DNA from: a virus
Taxonomy: Duplodnaviria; Caudoviricetes
Reading direction: 5' to 3' (one strand)
IMG/VR virus record: IMGVR_UViG_3300042997_002652
Location: 64,001-128,000 of that record
DNA: 64,000 bases
Shown: piece after piece, positions 7,434-52,221 of the stretch
Layout: each line of letters opens with the position of its first letter
Numbering within the stretch: position 1 is the first letter of the stretch
Program-made: the position numbers and the translations under genes
Notes under the pieces: model-generated
The model's database searches: none
What the model was told of the DNA's origin: nothing
Seen by the model: the letters and a program-made list of their open reading frames with translations, nothing else

Positions 7434-8363
7434 TTAACTCCCTGTTAGCTCAGCAAGTGTAGCTGCTAAACTTATTTCAGGTATACCCACAAGAGGAAGA
7501 CTAGCCAAGCCATTTCTAATAGTGATAATAGACTGATCTTTCTTATCGTTAGTCTTACCCCAAAGATCAAGATTGTTGTACATCCACCGATATGTATTTT
7601 CTACTCTTGTTGGATAAAGAGCAATGTACTGCATTAGTTGCTGTCTACCTTCAAGAATCTTACCTGTTTTAAATAACTGTGCAGCTTGAGTCAATAACTC
7701 TTCTTCACCATTACCTTCAGAATGAGGAGGTTGTAATTTTCCTGTACCTGAGTTAGCTTGTAGCTGATTCAAACACTTGCGCAAATCTGGATAACAGCCG
7801 CGAACATAGCTATCTAAGTCTTCTAGTGTAAAATCTATGTTTTCGGTAACAAGAACCGTTGCTGCTCTAGCAGTAAATTCAGTAATATCAGGTTTTGCAA
7901 TGTGAAACTTAGTACATCTGCTTTCTCTTAGTGCAGGAATAATCTTGTGCTCATAGTTACAAGTAAGAATAAATCTTACTGTATTAGCATAAGCTTCCAT
8001 ATCGTTTCTAAGTGCTGCTTGAAACTCAGGAGAAGTGTAATCAGCTTCGTCTAGCAAGATAACTTTGAATTTACCAAAAGGCATTGTTTCAGCAAAGTTA
8101 TTGATTTTAGTTCTAACAATACCTACGCCGTTATCTCTAGAAGCGTTAATCTCCATTACATCGTATTCTTCTACGCCAAGCTCTTTGATTAGAACTTTTG
8201 CCAGTGTAGTCTTACCGGTGCCTGGATCACCGGATAACAGTAAGTGAGGGATCATTCCATCTTTGATCCATTGATTAACGATTTGTTTTTGTCTTTCATC
8301 AACAAAAACATATTCATTTACAGATTTAGGCCTGTATGCCTCAACCCAAAGTCTATTCTTCAT
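7434..8363 (-). CDS. gp44: Sliding-clamp loader large subunit (T4 gp44/RFC-like)
   Basis: LWVEAYRPKS, GDPGTGKTT, EINAS, ILLDEAD, FILTCNY, SRC. Confidence 0.93.
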   Translation of the reverse strand: MKNRLWVEAYRPKSVNEYVFVDERQKQIVNQWIKDGMIPHLLLSGDPGTGKTTLAKVLIKELGVEEYDVMEINASRDNGVGIVRTKINNFAETMPFGKFKVILLDEADYTSPEFQAALRNDMEAYANTVRFILTCNYEHKIIPALRESRCTKFHIAKPDITEFTARAATVLVTENIDFTLEDLDSYVRGCYPDLRKCLNQLQANSGTGKLQPPHSEGNGEEELLTQAAQLFKTGKILEGRQQLMQYIALYPTRVENTYRWMYNNLDLWGKTNDKKDQSIITIRNGLASLPLVGIPEISLAATLAELTGS

Positions 8364-8366
8364 TAA

Positions 8367-8672
8367 TTATCTCTTGATTGCTTCGTATGTTACAATGTGT
8401 GCTAGTCTCTCACCCAAATCTTGTTCGGATGTAACTATGTATAAACTGGTTTGACTGTCGTGGTTTTTATCATAACTACGTGTTTCTACTACATGCCCGC
8501 CGTCAGCTTTGTACACAGTAAACCTAGTACCGTTAGAGTCAATAGAATCAACTGACTTAGGCGATAGTGAATTTGCTATTGAAGGTCTATCCCCTCTTGT
8601 TTTTTCGTATTCACGCGCATTTTCCCACGCTTCACGGCACATATTTGCAAACCATTTCTTAAAAAATTTCAT
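8367..8672 (-). CDS. Hypothetical protein
   Basis: ORF track, operonic. Confidence 0.6.
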   Translation of the reverse strand: MKFFKKWFANMCREAWENAREYEKTRGDRPSIANSLSPKSVDSIDSNGTRFTVYKADGGHVVETRSYDKNHDSQTSLYIVTSEQDLGERLAHIVTYEAIKR

Positions 8673-9070
8673 TAGATTCCCTTATCACTCATGTTATAGT
8701 CTTCAACTTTTTCATCGCTTACTAATAGTATATCTTTATTGTCTACTTTGCGAACAATTTGGACACCTTCAGCGTCTTCAATCTTTACACCTCTAGTCCA
8801 TCTTCCGTGTGCGATATAAATCCATTTCCCGACTTCTAAATCTTTTTGATCTGGACCGATCGCATAAACTCTAGCCCAACGAGGTCTGATACCAGAATTT
8901 TTCATATCATCATTTGGAAGAATAAGACCTGCATGACTCAATCTTTCACCAAATTCCATTTGATGAACAACTACAGAATCTTTAAGAGGTAAAAACTCTT
9001 CTACTTGAATAGCATTCGTATTTTTAGCTGTTAACATAATATCCTTACTTAATAATTGCCAAAATTTCAT
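8672..9070 (-). CDS. groES: Divergent GroES-like co-chaperonin
   Basis: FLPLKDSVVV...AGLILP...ARVYAIGPD...EVGKWI...DILLV; true start probably the second Met (~9037). Confidence 0.75.
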   Translation of the reverse strand: MKFWQLLSKDIMLTAKNTNAIQVEEFLPLKDSVVVHQMEFGERLSHAGLILPNDDMKNSGIRPRWARVYAIGPDQKDLEVGKWIYIAHGRWTRGVKIEDAEGVQIVRKVDNKDILLVSDEKVEDYNMSDKGI

Positions 9071-9332
9071 CTTCTTGTAGAATGCGGTACTCTTGATCTT
9101 CTACTTTTACTACTTGACCCGCGCCTTGAACGAAAAGAACTTTGTCACCCTCATTAACTCCGGGTACTACAAAAGTGCCATTTTCTAAATAAGTTCCAGG
9201 ACCTACAGCAATTACGATACCTTGATTAGGTTTATCTGCTGCCGCGCCTGCTAAGATAAGACCGCCTGCACTCTTTTTTATTGTTTCAACTTCTTTAACT
9301 ACTATTCTGCCTTGTATTGGTTTAATCTTCAT
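9045..9332 (-). CDS. groES: Canonical GroES co-chaperonin
   Basis: MKIKPIQGRIVV...KSAGGLIL...GIVIAVGPG...GDKVLF...EDEILAII. Confidence 0.93.
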   Translation of the reverse strand: MKIKPIQGRIVVKEVETIKKSAGGLILAGAAADKPNQGIVIAVGPGTYLENGTFVVPGVNEGDKVLFVQGAGQVVKVEDQEYRILQEDEILAIIK

Positions 9333-9667: not shown

Positions 9668-9674
9668 TAGTCTC

Positions 9675-10181
9675 CTATTTTAAAAACTCATTAATTGATA
9701 TTTGATAGTATAAACTATTTATCCTATGTATCCCTATTAGATATAAAACAAAACTAGCAATACTACTACCTCTACCTACACCCCATACTATGTTATGTTT
9801 ACGCATAGTGTCTACTAAATATTTTAAGTATTGAAGAAGAATAAACATGTCTCGTTCTTGAAACATAATCAGTTCTTCTCCTGCGCGTTGTAATTCTTCA
9901 TCAGTTTTGCATTGCTCTAAAATCCATTTAGCAATATCAAAATTTTTATATTCTTCAGGCATGAACCATTCGGTTGATCTTATGTTGTCAAATTCTTCAA
10001 TAGTTTGGTCACTGGTTTGATATTCAAGAAGTTCTGGTAGTTTTTGTAAATCTAGTTCTGAATCAAAGTTAATTACTTCTTTTACAAGTAATGATTTTAA
10101 CTGCCGAGTAGGGTCAGTCATGTACAAATTACATATGTCTTTTTCGTTAAAGATGTGCTGACCGAAGTTATCAATAATCAT
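9675..10181 (-). CDS. dnaE: DNA polymerase III alpha (DnaE)-like N-terminal fragment
   Basis: EELQRAGEELIMF...LVDTMRKHNIVWGVGRGSSIASFVLYLIGIHRINSL...EFLK matches the DnaE segment RLxxEL...GPGRGSxAGSLVAYxLxITxxDP...FERFL. Confidence 0.85.
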   Translation of the reverse strand: MIIDNFGQHIFNEKDICNLYMTDPTRQLKSLLVKEVINFDSELDLQKLPELLEYQTSDQTIEEFDNIRSTEWFMPEEYKNFDIAKWILEQCKTDEELQRAGEELIMFQERDMFILLQYLKYLVDTMRKHNIVWGVGRGSSIASFVLYLIGIHRINSLYYQISINEFLK

Positions 10182-45204: not shown

Positions 45205-46623
45205 TTAATTATTCTTTAAGGAGTTTAGCATGTTTCTTAGCTTAGAACCTTGAACATCTGCTACTACTTTTTTCTCAGATTGTTGAATTTCACCAGTGTT
45301 AGCATCAATAGTTTCATTTTGAGATACTGTACTTACAGTTTTAATTTTGTTCATAATATCTGTAGCGGATTGACGATACCCAGCATTTTCATCACCGCCT
45401 TCATCTGTAATTCTCATAGTATCAATGTTATATTCTAAGTCAATCTTTTGACCAACACCAGTAGAACTACGTGATTTCATACACTGAATTTGATACTTGC
45501 CTCGCTCTTTCATTGATCTGCTAGTAAAGATACCAAACACATAGTCAGCAGTGTTAATCTTAGAAATACCACCTGCAATATGACTATGATCAAATTCAAT
45601 TTCTTCTACAGCCGATCTGTTTAGCTGTGATGCTGTAACCATTAAAACACCTAACTCTTTAGACAAGTTTCTTAATTCTTCACTAACATACTTGTCTTTG
45701 ATAAACTGATCATTAGGATTTACTTTAACACTAACAGGCATTACTAGATCCAAGTAATCAATCATTACAAAGTCTATTAGCATACCTGTTTGTATTTGTA
45801 CTTCTTTAATATAACTTCTGATTACGTTTACGTTGCTTTGTGCAGGAAGACCTTTAACACGATACTTACCTGACTTTTTAGCAGCCATTTTTACTTTTAA
45901 TTCTACTGTGTCTAAGTCTTTACGAATATCTTTAGTGCTCATGCTAGTTAACATAGCATCAGTTCTTAAAGCCGTTAGCTCTTCAGACAATTCAAGTGTA
46001 ATATAAACACCGCTTAATCCTTGTGCTAAAAAGTTCACAGCCAAGTTCATCATTACAAGTGACTTACCTGATCCTGAACCACCTGCAAAGATGTTTAGTT
46101 CGCCCCTAGACATACCACCATACATAACTTTGTCTAGTTGAGGCCACCCTGTGCTTACTTGACCGCCTTGATTAAAGTATCTGTTTAATCGTTCTTTAGG
46201 ATCAGCAAAGTAATCTGTACCATAATCACGCATTAAAGAAATTTGTACCGCATCTTTGATCAGTTTTTCAACTGGATCATATTCACCCTTTTCTAATAAC
46301 TCTGCTGCTTTTAAGATTGCTCGTTCTAGTTCTTGTCTTTTTGTAAAGTGTTCAAACTCAGTTAAGAAAAACTCGGTATGCCCTGCTGAGTCAAGTTCAG
46401 GGATTAGTTCAATTTCTATACCAGTAGTAGCTTTGATTTGCGTAGGATCAGGCAACACATTGTATTTTTGTGAATGTTCTACTATAAACTCTGCTGCCGC
46501 CCTAACTGATCTGTCAAAGTTTAGTGGGTTCATGATGTTCATTACCCTAGTATATAACTCAGGGTTAGTGATCATCATACGCAAAAATAGCGTTTGTACT
46601 TCGGGGTTAAATTCTTTTAACAA
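45205..46623 (-). CDS. gp41: Replicative DnaB-family helicase (T4 gp41-like)
   Basis: GELNIFAGGSGSGKSL, MIDYLDL, VTASQLNR, IAGGISKINTAD, KSR; TTG start. Confidence 0.93.
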   Translation of the reverse strand: MLKEFNPEVQTLFLRMMITNPELYTRVMNIMNPLNFDRSVRAAAEFIVEHSQKYNVLPDPTQIKATTGIEIELIPELDSAGHTEFFLTEFEHFTKRQELERAILKAAELLEKGEYDPVEKLIKDAVQISLMRDYGTDYFADPKERLNRYFNQGGQVSTGWPQLDKVMYGGMSRGELNIFAGGSGSGKSLVMMNLAVNFLAQGLSGVYITLELSEELTALRTDAMLTSMSTKDIRKDLDTVELKVKMAAKKSGKYRVKGLPAQSNVNVIRSYIKEVQIQTGMLIDFVMIDYLDLVMPVSVKVNPNDQFIKDKYVSEELRNLSKELGVLMVTASQLNRSAVEEIEFDHSHIAGGISKINTADYVFGIFTSRSMKERGKYQIQCMKSRSSTGVGQKIDLEYNIDTMRITDEGGDENAGYRQSATDIMNKIKTVSTVSQNETIDANTGEIQQSEKKVVADVQGSKLRNMLNSLKNN

Positions 46624-47596
46624 GTTTTCGTTTCCTCATTTCTATTTTAATTTTGCTCATAGTTGCTGATTGTATAATACTTAGCAACACAGGTAATTTA
46701 CCATATTTTACTACAGCTTCGTTTACATCTTTAATTGGTTTACCTTCATTGTTCAGTCCCCATTCAGGTAAGCTTATTTGATATCCTAGCTCCATAGCTA
46801 GATCACATAACTCTAATCCTGTTTTGTCTTGATCAGGAACTACTATAATAGTTCTGTTTAACCTTCTTAACAATTCTTGTTGTTCTAAACTGATTGTACT
46901 GGTACCCAAAGCACAACCATCTATACTTAGTGCATCAAATATACCTTCAACAACGATGCAAATAGACCATTCAGGTTTTTGAAAGTCATAACCAAACAAA
47001 TATCCTGTTGGTTGATCATTAAGATACTTTGGTTTTCTATCGTCTAAAAATCTACTTGTATTACCAACAATCGTTCCTTTGTATGTAAAAGGAACAATGA
47101 TTCTGTTTGAGTTTCGTCCGATATCTTCCGTAGTAACTAAAAAAGGATATTCATCGTGTTTTATTTTTCTATTATTTAAGTAGTCTATAAATCTAGTGTG
47201 TTTTGAATTGTTAATATCTAACACTTCACTATTATCGGGAAGTTCTTTTTCTTTAAAGTTGATAGCTACATTTCTTACTGCGGGTGTAATATAGTCTAAT
47301 ATATCTTTATTTTGTAAACTTTCTAAACCGATCTTTGTGATCAAGCTTTCATCAGCGCCGCACCATTTTAGAAATAATTTAGTGTTTGTAGATAACGGTT
47401 TACCCAACTCAAATCTACATTTGAAATGGCAGTTAAAGCAACTGTATGTAAAGTTGTAGTTGTCTTTGATTAAACCGCCACGCATTCTTTTATCGGGCTT
47501 ATGTCCACGATAATGACAACAGGGTGAATTAAATGAAACCCAGCCCTTTGCTGTTGTTTTTCTTTTGCCGGGAATAATTGTTAATATATCAAACAT
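46607..47596 (-). CDS. gp61: DNA primase (gp61-like, Zn-binding + TOPRIM)
   Basis: PCCH...YSCFNC Zn domain; IVVEGIFDA; VVPDQD; KDVNE. Confidence 0.85.
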   Translation of the reverse strand: MFDILTIIPGKRKTTAKGWVSFNSPCCHYRGHKPDKRMRGGLIKDNYNFTYSCFNCHFKCRFELGKPLSTNTKLFLKWCGADESLITKIGLESLQNKDILDYITPAVRNVAINFKEKELPDNSEVLDINNSKHTRFIDYLNNRKIKHDEYPFLVTTEDIGRNSNRIIVPFTYKGTIVGNTSRFLDDRKPKYLNDQPTGYLFGYDFQKPEWSICIVVEGIFDALSIDGCALGTSTISLEQQELLRRLNRTIIVVPDQDKTGLELCDLAMELGYQISLPEWGLNNEGKPIKDVNEAVVKYGKLPVLLSIIQSATMSKIKIEMRKRKLVKRI

Positions 47597-48485: not shown

Positions 48486-48866
48486 ATGAGTGCAGAAGAT
48501 TTTTTCAAAAAATTAAGTGATAATCACCCGTTTATAACTGTGTGTCATTATGCCAGCCAAGATTATGTAGGTATAGTACAAAATCGGGACGATATAGTTA
48601 CCTCTATTTACGATTATGGATCAATAGTAGAGATAGGACTAAAAGAAAAGTTTTTAGAACTAGGTGACATTTGGTGGTGGGAATCAAATAGACTTATACC
48701 AATCAATATATTTTTGAAAGAAGATTGGGCCGTGTTCAAGCCATACTTACGAACATTTAATAACAAAAGTTTAGCAATATTACACGGACCTACTGTCAGC
48801 ATGACTGATTTAGGTAAGCGTAGATCAAAAAGAAGATCAATTACTTTAGTTAAACGCCTTTTCTAG
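48486..48866 (+). CDS. Hypothetical late protein
   Basis: ATAAATA at 48471-48477; protein-like composition. Confidence 0.7.
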   Translation: MSAEDFFKKLSDNHPFITVCHYASQDYVGIVQNRDDIVTSIYDYGSIVEIGLKEKFLELGDIWWWESNRLIPINIFLKEDWAVFKPYLRTFNNKSLAILHGPTVSMTDLGKRRSKRRSITLVKRLF

Positions 48867-48869
48867 CTC

Positions 48870-49361
48870 TTATCTTTTTTCTCTTATCTTTTTTCTCTTT
48901 TCTTTTGCTCGTTCTAGTACAAGCTTGCCTACTCTATCATCAAAGCATATAGAATTTAAATGATCCAGCTCATGCTGATAGACCCTAGCCATTAAACCAT
49001 TAAATTCTTGTTGTACTTTCTCACCAGCAACATTGTAATACTCTACTGAGATATCTTTGTATCGTTCTACATACATCCAAAGATCAGGAAAGCTCAAGCA
49101 TCCTTCTTGCTCTCTCACTCTTTCGCTACCTGAGATAATTTCTGGATTGATACATGCTACTAAATGATCAGAATTACCCATAACAAATATGCGTTTAGCA
49201 ATACCGCACTGAGGCGCAGCTAAACCTATGCCGTTATGTAAAACCATTAGCTTGGACATAGCCTTAACTAATTCACTGGGATCACCGTCTTTTTCCCAGT
49301 CCCACGATTCAGCTACTTCTCTTAGTACTTCGCTATCTTCAGGTATAAGTTTAAGATCCAT
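48870..49361 (-). CDS. def: Peptide deformylase
   Basis: GIGLAAPQ, EGCLS, QHELDHL motifs intact. Confidence 0.96.
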   Translation of the reverse strand: MDLKLIPEDSEVLREVAESWDWEKDGDPSELVKAMSKLMVLHNGIGLAAPQCGIAKRIFVMGNSDHLVACINPEIISGSERVREQEGCLSFPDLWMYVERYKDISVEYYNVAGEKVQQEFNGLMARVYQHELDHLNSICFDDRVGKLVLERAKEKRKKIREKR

Positions 49362-49932
49362 GTTGTTCCTCTTTTATTAAATTCATATGTACGGCAACCA
49401 ACCATGCATAACCCAAACTATGTGACTTTTTAAAGCTATAGCCATCACTGCCTTTGTCCCACACTGTTTTGTTTACTTCTTGCCAAGTTTTTCCTATCAA
49501 ATGACGTTTCGCTGGTCTTATTACTGCTAAGAACATAGCTAACCGTGGTATACTATCTATTGGTTCAGGCATCTTTCTAATCGTATCATACTGACCATTC
49601 AAGTGTATAAGTTGTTCTACTATATCTCGCTTAGTTAGCATAGTCCAATCAGGTTCACGCATCAAACTAATCAAGTGTTCTTCACTTTTTACTTTTTCGT
49701 AAACGTGAACATTTAAGATATCTAACTTAAAGTATCCCCTTTCTTCTGCCTCTTCATAAGAAATAGCTGCAATTTCATTTATAGGATCATATGGTATGTT
49801 GCATGGATATATACCAGAAGCGTGTTTTCTAATAGGTGTAATATTACGCATAGAAGCAGGTATATGTTTGATCTTTTCCAAGATCAAATCTCTATTACCT
49901 ACGTCAATGTCTACGTCAAAGTTTAATTTCAC
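49351..49932 (-). CDS. dnaE: Miniaturised DnaE-like catalytic core (palm + partial fingers)
   Basis: FDVDID, RKHASG, AEERGYFKLDIL, LAVIRP, YSFKKSHSLGYA; GTG start overlapping the upstream stop. Confidence 0.85.
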   Translation of the reverse strand: MKLNFDVDIDVGNRDLILEKIKHIPASMRNITPIRKHASGIYPCNIPYDPINEIAAISYEEAEERGYFKLDILNVHVYEKVKSEEHLISLMREPDWTMLTKRDIVEQLIHLNGQYDTIRKMPEPIDSIPRLAMFLAVIRPAKRHLIGKTWQEVNKTVWDKGSDGYSFKKSHSLGYAWLVAVHMNLIKEEQHGS

Positions 49933-50495
49933 GGTTTCATTAATCCAGCGGCTATTAACTTTTGATAAGCATCTTGTACTACAATCGCTTGATGTTCGGC
50001 GTCTTCTACTGCATTGTGCGTAGTTTTAGTACCATACTTTTTATCTTTTAGTTTCACACCGGCTATTTCAAATAGTGTTCTAGTGTCTCTTACTGTATAG
50101 AAAGGCCATGGTATTGGATTTGGTTTATCAGTTAAAGTTTGTCTAAACGCTGTTTCCATAACTACTACGTCAAAAGGGGCACCGTTTGACCACACAGCAT
50201 CTTGATTCCAACAATAATGATATAACACTTCCATGCATTCTTTTAATGACATTCTACCCTGTTCATTAAACGCTGCGTTTAGTGCTTCAGGAGATTGTTG
50301 CGACCACCATCTGAGAGTATCTTCATTAATGATTCTGTTATATACTTCAGTTTGATCTTCAATAGTAGGTTTTAGTTCTAATCTATCAAGCACACCAGTT
50401 CCTTTTGGGTTAAACTTTACTACACCAATAGTAAGAATAACACAATTGGGTGATGTGTCTAAAGATTCTATATCTATCATCAAATGAGAGGGCAT
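49929..50495 (-). CDS. DEDDh 3'-5' exonuclease
   Basis: LMIDIES (ExoI), WSNGAPFD (ExoII), HNAVEDA (ExoIII). Confidence 0.9.
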   Translation of the reverse strand: MPSHLMIDIESLDTSPNCVILTIGVVKFNPKGTGVLDRLELKPTIEDQTEVYNRIINEDTLRWWSQQSPEALNAAFNEQGRMSLKECMEVLYHYCWNQDAVWSNGAPFDVVVMETAFRQTLTDKPNPIPWPFYTVRDTRTLFEIAGVKLKDKKYGTKTTHNAVEDAEHQAIVVQDAYQKLIAAGLMKP

Positions 50496-50496
50496 A

Positions 50497-50796
50497 TCAT
50501 TCCCATCTTAGTTTAGCTAACATATATTCTTTATCGGTCTTTAAGTAAATAGCGCGTTTGCTGTCCTTGCTATCGTTAGCCCAAGCCCATATTGGCCAGT
50601 CTTCGTCATGTGCCCAAGCATCGTGTAACTCATAACTACGTCCCCAAATTACTTCACACCATTGTCTAATTTCATTAAACGTCTTGATTTGGTCCCGAGA
50701 ATTCATACCATGAGTCTCTATCATATATTGATAAATATTACCGCCGTTGTATCTTCTGTCTATCTTTTTAAATGTTATTATTCGCATAGTTTCCAA
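50497..50796 (-). CDS. Small hypothetical protein, xLRWE-terminal family
   Basis: Ends KEYMLAKLRWE; true start probably MRIITF. Confidence 0.65.
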   Translation of the reverse strand: METMRIITFKKIDRRYNGGNIYQYMIETHGMNSRDQIKTFNEIRQWCEVIWGRSYELHDAWAHDEDWPIWAWANDSKDSKRAIYLKTDKEYMLAKLRWE

Positions 50797-51029
50797 TGGA
50801 CATATATTTTATCGTTTATTGTAACACGTTTACTAGTCAACCACCAATCTTTTAGGTAACCTTTGTTAGGATATTTTTCCCATAACCAATCTTCTAAAGC
50901 TCTAGTCCAGTCACACTGAATAAAGATTTGTTCTTGCCATTCATTATTAATGAAAATCTTTTTCCTGATTTTTCGGTTGGTAGGAACATAATCAATTATG
51001 TCTACATGATCGTAATAATTGAAACCCAT
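50778..51029 (-). CDS. Small hypothetical protein
   Basis: Ends KIYVHWKLCE. Confidence 0.65.
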   Translation of the reverse strand: MGFNYYDHVDIIDYVPTNRKIRKKIFINNEWQEQIFIQCDWTRALEDWLWEKYPNKGYLKDWWLTSKRVTINDKIYVHWKLCE

Positions 51030-51293
51030 TTATTCCCACCTCAATAAAAACCATTCATAATCTTTAGACTGTTCAAACGCTATACGATTATCAAACCAAC
51101 GATGTTCACCTATAGTGTTTTGTTTTACCCATTCTATCACTTCATCAAGTTGCTGATAAGAAATTATTGCACCATGCCACCCACTTGTGATACACAAATT
51201 GTATAATAACTCTTGATCTAAACGATTACGAATATTATTCGCCATCTCAGTTAGAATCTCATCATGCTCGTTTTGTGACAAGCTCATTCCCAC
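51030..51293 (-). CDS. Small hypothetical protein, xLRWE-terminal family
   Basis: Ends KDYEWFLLRWE. Confidence 0.65.
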   Translation of the reverse strand: MGMSLSQNEHDEILTEMANNIRNRLDQELLYNLCITSGWHGAIISYQQLDEVIEWVKQNTIGEHRWFDNRIAFEQSKDYEWFLLRWE

Positions 51294-51508
51294 CTCAGTT
51301 TAAACCAAATTCTATGTTCTTCTATTGGTACATACCAAATATCAGATATACTAAACAATTCGGAACCTTGGTATTCTATCTTTATATCACAATCTTCAGC
51401 CCACTTCCAAACTTGTTTTCGCATGGTCCAATGTGAACATACTAAACAACTTTTGGGTATGTTTAGTTGCTTTGATACATCATCTAATGAATATATCTGT
51501 TCGCTCAA
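51284..51508 (-). CDS. Small hypothetical protein, xLRWE-terminal family
   Basis: Ends EHRIWFKLRWE. Confidence 0.65.
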   Translation of the reverse strand: MSEQIYSLDDVSKQLNIPKSCLVCSHWTMRKQVWKWAEDCDIKIEYQGSELFSISDIWYVPIEEHRIWFKLRWE

Positions 51509-51510
51509 CT

Positions 51511-52221
51511 TTAATACCCAGCTTCTTTCAATAGTTCTTTAACTTGCTTTACTTGTTCTTTGTTTCGCAAAAACTTTAATGCCCATTGTTCAGGATTGAT
51601 ATAATCAAAGATCAATCGTTGTAAACCTTCATCTAAACTTTCAATAAATTCAATACCCGATTGACTTTGATATAACATCCATGCACTGATCTTGCCGTTA
51701 GTAATCTTATAACAAATTTTATTCTTACTACCATATCGTAAATAGTCACCAGCTTTAATATTATCTGGTTCTGCTAATTTAATAGTAGTTTCAATGCTTC
51801 TAGCAATAGCATCAAGTGGATCTTCTTCGCGCAAGTAATAAATCAAGTAACGATTGTATACTTGATCACTAGTCCAACTATCAATAGAAATTTTATTGTC
51901 TAGCAACCAATCTAAGTATCTAGTAATATTGATAGCATTAATATCAACACAATAGTTACCAAATTTAACAAAGGCTATGTAATATGCGCTTTTTACAAAG
52001 TCCAAATAAGTTTTTGGTTTTCTTGAGTTTGTATTCTTTTTGTAAAAAGCAAGCCAGCACTGAAACGCTATTCTGTTTCCAGCGTTATCTTTTTCATGCA
52101 CTCTACGCTTAGTTTCGCACATGTGTTTAAACATTGACTGTTCGCGTTGGAATTGCTTATTACAAAAGTCGCAAACAAATTCAGTTACCTGAGTCTCTTT
52201 CATACTGATTAAGTTCATCAT
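51511..52221 (-). CDS. Hypothetical protein with N-terminal Zn finger
   Basis: CDFCNKQFQREQSMFKHMC (C-x2-C-x12-H-x-C). Confidence 0.65.
   Translation of the reverse strand: MMNLISMKETQVTEFVCDFCNKQFQREQSMFKHMCETKRRVHEKDNAGNRIAFQCWLAFYKKNTNSRKPKTYLDFVKSAYYIAFVKFGNYCVDINAINITRYLDWLLDNKISIDSWTSDQVYNRYLIYYLREEDPLDAIARSIETTIKLAEPDNIKAGDYLRYGSKNKICYKITNGKISAWMLYQSQSGIEFIESLDEGLQRLIFDYINPEQWALKFLRNKEQVKQVKELLKEAGY

Follow-up and report, generated by a model that had tools for sequence, protein, structure and literature searches.

We analysed a 64,000-nucleotide stretch of DNA (hereafter the window) from a virus of the Caudoviricetes (Duplodnaviria), positions 64,001 to 128,000 of the 267-kb IMG/VR record IMGVR_UViG_3300042997_002652. 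On its minus strand, a 193-aa open reading frame (ORF) with a GTG start lies between the gene of a stand-alone DEDDh 3'-5' exonuclease and that of a peptide deformylase (def) (Table 1). A first-pass annotation, made from the sequence alone, had described this ORF as a miniature, thumbless catalytic core of a C-family DNA polymerase coupled to the exonuclease. The gene arrangement that it reported was found as described: the GTG start and the stop of the intact exonuclease gene share 4 nt (CCGTGAAA), a junction seen in locus L008 (99% identical), and the def gene on the 3' side overlaps the end of the ORF by 11 nt in the ORF scan. Our results indicate that the ORF very probably encodes the C-terminal half (the C-unit) of a two-chain minimal DNA polymerase III alpha subunit (Pol III alpha) of the group 2.2 (Rak2/121Q/PA5oct/Atu_ph07-type) jumbo phages, with the N-terminal half (the N-unit) encoded elsewhere in the window.

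The C-unit had no match in Pfam, and a profile search was needed because a single-sequence phmmer search against the PDB returned no polymerase, only weak lectin matches (E 0.027). In PHROGs the protein belongs to phrog_11778 ('DNA polymerase', E 6.5e-56). A word-indexed search retrieved 7268 members of the C-unit family at E <= 0.001, and an exhaustive search resolved the family into 356 clusters at 50% identity, with uniform lengths. Conservation was read from an alignment of 80 full-length homologues with identities as low as 28%, and the profile of these sequences matched E. coli Pol III alpha over three colinear segments (E 1.2e-5). C-unit residues 5-21 aligned with E. coli 400-418 (including D401 and D403), residues 54-140 with 538-641 (K553, D555 and the RPG motif) and residues 152-180 with 740-769 (FNKSHSAAYA). 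The catalytic carboxylates D401, D403 and D555 of E. coli correspond in this alignment to D6, D8 and D71 of the C-unit, which lie in the motifs DVDID (6-10) and FKLDIL (68-73); the other motifs of the translation are RKHASG (35-40), AVIRP (136-140) and FKKSHSLGYA (167-176). D6, D8, K69, D71, R139 and P140 were invariant in 80/80 sequences, and D10, H37, G40, W96, K142, K168, H171 and A176 were nearly so. The three catalytic aspartates and the finger motifs are thus kept, as had been proposed from the translation, and relaxed selection on the aspartates was not seen.

Structure prediction gave the same assignment. The AlphaFold2 (AF2) model of the C-unit had a mean predicted local distance difference test score (pLDDT) of 95.5 and a predicted template modelling score of 0.89, and the best 11 Foldseek matches to it were all Pol III alpha. 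With VIA-align the model superposed on Taq Pol III alpha 458-839 (3e0d_A) with Z 9.3 and a root-mean-square deviation (rmsd) of 3.7 Å over 190 residues, on E. coli Pol III alpha 397-782 with Z 8.5, and on residues 967-1304 of the PolC-type chain 9qrn_A with Z 7.4. All of the 13 best chains belonged to the C family, and the next, the first unrelated chain, reached Z 3.2; the model superposes on Pol III alpha and PolC only. These results indicate that the C-family homology of the C-unit and its kept carboxylates are real.

The protein is much reduced relative to the bacterial enzyme. C-unit residues 22-53 (32 aa) occupy the place of E. coli 419-537 (119 aa) in the profile alignment, a stretch that we take, by the published domain limits, to include the thumb, and the AF2 model has only a short hairpin at the thumb position. 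In the finger region, 11 residues stand against 98 in E. coli (642-739), about 87 fewer, and the chain stops 17 residues past the KSHS..YA motif, at a point corresponding to about residue 782 of 1160 in E. coli. Missing from the C-unit chain are the full fingers, the beta-clamp-binding region, the OB fold and the tau-binding regions. The 267-kb record as a whole gave no match to the PHP domain (PF02811) at E <= 10, while the controls matched in 14/14 genomes, and none to the finger domain PF17657. The picture of a miniature, thumbless protein without PHP, beta-binding or OB domain was thereby borne out.

The C-unit alone does not amount to a full catalytic core, and the half of the palm that binds the nucleoside triphosphate (NTP), with its GRGS loop, sits in the N-unit. 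Searching the phage's own record with PF07733 gave a match at window positions 9669-9917 on the minus strand, within a 168-aa ORF that aligns with PF07733 positions 16-94 (E 1.2e-8) and falls in phrog_11127 (E 1.2e-39). The two units match consecutive parts of the full-length DnaE family phrog_405, the N-unit at positions 356-428 and the C-unit, faintly, at 774-809. The phosphate-binding loop GVGRGSS (N-unit G134-S140) was invariant in 26 N-unit sequences; the GRGS loop does not occur in the 193-aa chain and is supplied only in trans by the N-unit. N-unit profile residues 93-167 correspond to Taq Pol III alpha 380-454, ending at 'ERFL', and the C-unit model starts at Taq 458, so that the two chains abut within about three residues. 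The catalytic-core label of the first-pass annotation fits the carboxylates and fingers, which are in the 193-aa chain, and needs qualifying for the GRGS half of the palm, which is on a separate chain; its figure of 361 aa for both halves is the sum of the N-unit (168) and the C-unit (193), which shows that the annotation took the second chain into account.

A distance of 39 kb separates the two genes in the window. An N-unit was found in 5/5 other genomes that bear a C-unit, at distances of 31-224 kb from it, and metagenomic matches to the two units occurred on contigs of equal size (326220, 223777, 110862, 78489 and 72139 bp), which points to shared contigs. A natural fusion of the halves, P0271, joins an N part 39% identical to the N-unit of the window to a C part through a linker of about ten residues (375 aa in total). 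It was the sole fused form among the 356 representative clusters in the exhaustive search of representatives; a word-indexed search for longer relatives returned none. The fusion occupies the syntenic position of the C-unit. Its AF2 model (mean pLDDT 77) was used for overall superposition only, and matched Taq Pol III alpha 292-830 with Z 15.8 and an rmsd of 3.9 Å over 284 residues, PolC with Z 14.5, and other Pol-beta-fold transferases with Z 4.3 at most. On E. coli Pol III alpha, the fold superposes over residues 270-773.

Each polymerase half sits in its own conserved replication module. Downstream of the C-unit, a module with a DnaG-like primase and a DnaB-like helicase keeps its synteny in 25 or more loci, and the order in every relative is p167, p199, a zinc-finger protein, a variable slot, the C-unit, a 126-aa gene, a structural protein, the primase and the helicase. 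In PA5oct, 121Q and one IMG/VR contig, a 112-aa protein, a GroES-like 132-aa protein and an RFC-like clamp-loader ATPase come after the N-unit; Atu_ph07 and Phosso match this order only partially. The helicase, primase and clamp loader that had been expected to work alongside the mini-polymerase are all found in the window. A family B polymerase (PolB), which the first-pass annotation had proposed to look for in the rest of the genome, was present as a frame of 912 aa with PF00136 and its own exonuclease domain (PF03104), about 8 kb upstream of the window.

Table 1. Features of the window and of related loci discussed in the text. Positions are those of the window unless a locus is named.
Feature	Position	Strand	Length, family or evidence
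Probable C-terminal unit of split minimal Pol III alpha	49351..49932	-	193 aa, GTG start; phrog_11778
Probable N-terminal unit of split minimal Pol III alpha	9675..10181	-	168 aa; PF07733, phrog_11127
N+C fusion P0271	L033:1066-2193	+	2.4-kb ENA metagenome contig
Stand-alone DEDDh 3'-5' exonuclease, Rv2179c-like	49929..50495	-	188 aa; PF16473, E 1.2e-34
Peptide deformylase (def)	48870..49361	-	163 aa; PF01327, E 6.6e-40
Convergent neighbour of C-unit	48486..48866	+	126 aa; phrog_11637; conserved synteny
DnaG-like primase	46607-47596	-	Pfam and PHROG
DnaB-like helicase	45205-46623	-	Pfam and PHROG
RFC-like clamp-loader ATPase	7434..8363	-	Pfam AAA, Rad17, DNA_pol3_delta2
Two adjacent GroES-type genes	8672-9332	-	One clear Cpn10 (95 aa, PF00166); one 132-aa relative
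Four tandem small ORFs	50497-51508	-	99, 83, 87 and 74 aa
Protein with N-terminal C2H2-type zinc finger	51511-52221	-	236 aa; phrog_11058
HNH/NUMOD3 homing-endonuclease-like gene	L013:2595-3392	-	
GDP-mannose/dTDP-glucose-type 4,6-dehydratase	L017:1533-2558	+	Likewise in L018
Three paralogous repeat proteins	L012:2992-4001	+	HRTDGPA repeats

The enzyme of the window is a diverged member of an already published family, not a new kind of enzyme or system. All of the phage records matching in the C-unit search (96/96) were jumbo phages of the Rak2, 121Q, GAP32, PA5oct, Atu_ph07, Phosso or XaC1 type, at identities of 47% or less. The family, of which the first-pass annotation makes no mention, was described by Iyer, Anantharaman, Krishnan, Burroughs and Aravind (Viruses 2021, PMC7824862), who report a minimal split Pol III alpha beside PolB in group 2.2 jumbo phages (section 3.4.1, Fig 3b). 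In members such as 121Q gp16, Atu_ph07 gp074 and PA5oct EST35_0220, distant genes likewise encode the two units, the N-terminal one binding NTP and the C-terminal one binding Mg and template. The window shares with them the families phrog_11778 and phrog_11127, the synteny around both halves, and the co-occurring PolB, DnaB-like helicase, DnaG-like primase and RFC-like clamp loader. It differs from the cultured members in a C-unit identity of just 37-47% and in the exonuclease and def genes that are inserted beside the C-unit in its uncultured clade. The PA5oct omics paper does not mention the split polymerase.

With bacterial Pol III alpha (2HNH/5FKU, 2HPI/3E0D) and PolC (3F2B), the enzyme has in common the Pol-beta-like palm, the carboxylates, the lysine equivalent to K553, the GRGS loop and the RPG and KSHS..YA finger motifs. 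It differs from bacterial Pol III alpha in having 361 residues in two chains instead of about 1160 in one, in lacking the PHP, thumb, beta-binding, OB and tau-binding regions, and in its shortened fingers. Split DnaE is also found in cyanobacteria, where two distant genes encode halves with intein fragments, through which they are spliced to a single chain. The window resembles that system in making a C-family polymerase from two distant genes; in contrast to it, there is no room here for intein fragments, and the split lies inside the palm, not in the fingers. Intein-mediated joining of the halves was rejected, as the alignments to Pol III alpha run to the termini of both chains and leave no residues over.

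Because neither chain could hold an intein, the N-unit and C-unit would associate non-covalently, forming one composite active site. In such a heterodimer, the N-unit would give the Pol-beta-like palm its first half, and with it the GRGS loop, which would hold the triphosphate of the incoming nucleotide. The C-unit would give the metal-binding D6, D8 and D71, together with K69 and the reduced fingers (R139-P140; K168, H171 and A176). The split falls in the loop that links 'ERFL' to 'PDxDxD' in Pol III alpha, and neither half is expected to be active alone. With thumb, PHP, beta-binding and OB domains all missing and a PolB replicase present in the phage, the pair would be a distributive, non-processive enzyme, accessory to the family B replicase. 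This agrees with the first-pass view that the mini-polymerase is unlikely to be a processive replicase, a view supported by the 912-aa PolB with an exonuclease domain of its own. The pair would most likely carry out templated DNA synthesis over short stretches, for example in primer extension, gap filling or repair, and on balance we lean towards templated synthesis.

Several points weigh against this interpretation. The finger stretch, cut to 11 residues, takes the place of E. coli 642-739, which presumably carries an arginine that contacts the incoming nucleotide, and templated synthesis is not assured because this stretch is so reduced. The N half of the P0271 model is weak, with pLDDT 39-50 around the GS loop. 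Our literature search turned up no experimental work on the split minimal Pol III alpha, nor any purification or assay of a member. Finally, the exonuclease lies in the operon of the C-unit in 14/14 loci of the clade defined by at least 66% C-unit identity (11 on viral contigs and 3 on large metagenomic contigs), which would fit a clade-specific functional link between exonuclease and mini-polymerase, although we regard such a link as quite improbable.

An active two-chain enzyme might instead perform untemplated tailing, primase-like initiation or nucleotide-signal synthesis, as Pol-beta-fold transferases do. The loss of the thumb and of most of the fingers, the parts that hold the primer-template duplex in Pol III alpha, would suit such an activity, as would the full PolB replicase already in the genome, and the next structural neighbours of the fused model are CCA-adding enzymes, MenT toxins, Pol beta and Rel/SpoT (Z 3-4). 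We consider this unlikely, because the finger motifs RP and KSHS..YA are invariant or nearly so, the superposition of the fused model on Pol III alpha far exceeds that on any other transferase, and both genes lie within DNA-replication modules.

Another explanation is that the mini-polymerase and the coupled DEDDh exonuclease form an alpha-epsilon-like pair, in which the exonuclease proofreads or otherwise processes the 3' end. The mini-polymerase lacks its own editing domain, and the neighbouring protein is, like other Rv2179c-like phage exonucleases (PF16473), full-length with its DEDDh residues kept; D8, E10, D109, H160 and D165 were invariant in 8 relatives. The two genes overlap by 4 nt (NTGA) in the window and in 8/11 viral-contig clade loci, with ATG, GTG or TTG at the same position, and one further clade contig has an 11-nt overlap. 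Against this, one to three unrelated genes stand between exonuclease and C-unit in 5/14 clade loci; they encode repeat proteins or an NAD-dependent sugar dehydratase, or are small ORFs (one or two). An exonuclease upstream of the C-unit is confined to relatives whose C-units are at least 66% identical, and no relative at 51% or less has one in that slot. The complete genomes of PA5oct and Atu_ph07, both of which have the split polymerase, lack PF16473, and 121Q and Phosso have only weak matches (31-33 bits), 38-108 kb from the C-unit. Relatives of the exonuclease are scattered over about 550 phage records of many kinds, and its closest cultured-phage homologues are in small Vibrio, Rhodobacter and lambdoid phages. 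Moreover, epsilon of E. coli docks on the PHP domain of alpha, which is missing here, and we know of no Rv2179c-like DEDDh exonuclease that serves as a polymerase subunit.

The epsilon-like partnership put forward in the first-pass annotation is unsupported, because the adjacency is clade-limited and often interrupted and because PA5oct and Atu_ph07 lack PF16473; as an explanation of the locus, we hold the alpha-epsilon-like pair to be doubtful. Our conclusion is that one lake-phage lineage took up the exonuclease and def genes into variable slots beside the C-unit, and that the overlap of start and stop reflects the usual tight packing of operons and no partnership across the family; we do not count the exonuclease as a proven part of the mini-polymerase. 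Comparably improbable is a three-chain 'mini Pol III core' of about 550 residues, with the exonuclease recruited as an editing subunit without PHP docking, or, more broadly, a composite-site transferase. If true, the former would be an independent re-invention of alpha-epsilon pairing in a lake-phage clade, and the latter a transferase switched on only when its halves, from the clamp-loader and primase-helicase modules, meet. A decayed, catalytically dead DnaE remnant, a scaffold at most, would fit the split gene and the retention of about a third of a normal alpha subunit, but is hardly credible given catalytic and nucleotide-binding residues that are invariant in 80 C-unit and 26 N-unit sequences, the large family of uniform length, and a very confident AF2 model.

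Among the neighbours of the C-unit, the convergent 126-aa gene (phrog_11637) is conserved: its 3' end touches or overlaps that of the C-unit in every relative examined (37-100% C-unit identity), and it also adjoins the natural N+C fusion. Searches in Pfam and the ESM Atlas gave no lead for its product, which could be an accessory factor of the mini-polymerase. A def gene between the C-unit and this conserved gene is confined to relatives whose C-unit identity is 66% or more, and even among these L016-L018 lack it. We conclude that it is a clade-specific insertion, with the same clade-limited pattern as the exonuclease.

The slot upstream of the C-unit is an insertion hot spot in sister phages, where it holds a homing-endonuclease-like gene (L013), a 4,6-dehydratase (L017, L018) or repeat proteins (L012). 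In all relatives, a protein with a C2H2-type zinc finger is encoded upstream of it. The four tandem small ORFs in the window mostly share a C-terminal motif (..LRWE or ..KLCE) and had no Pfam or PHROG match, and related loci carry extra copies ending in KLRWQ, KLKWQ or RLRWS (L010). They look like an expanding small-protein family that fills the slot between the zinc-finger gene and the exonuclease. Near the N-unit, two GroES-type genes are adjacent to each other; the second encodes a 132-aa relative without Pfam match, conserved beside the N-unit and clamp loader in PA5oct, Atu_ph07, 121Q and Phosso.

The comparative data favour the N-unit and the C-unit, not the C-unit and the exonuclease, as the pair to study together. 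The P0271 fusion is a possible single-chain construct, and the universally linked 126-aa protein is a candidate accessory factor. Among known relatives of the bacterial replicase, the split minimal Pol III alpha is the smallest. It has been put forward as a model of that replicase in its ancestral form (PMC7824862). As its catalytic residues are invariant across a large family, it is almost certainly important in the replication of jumbo phages.

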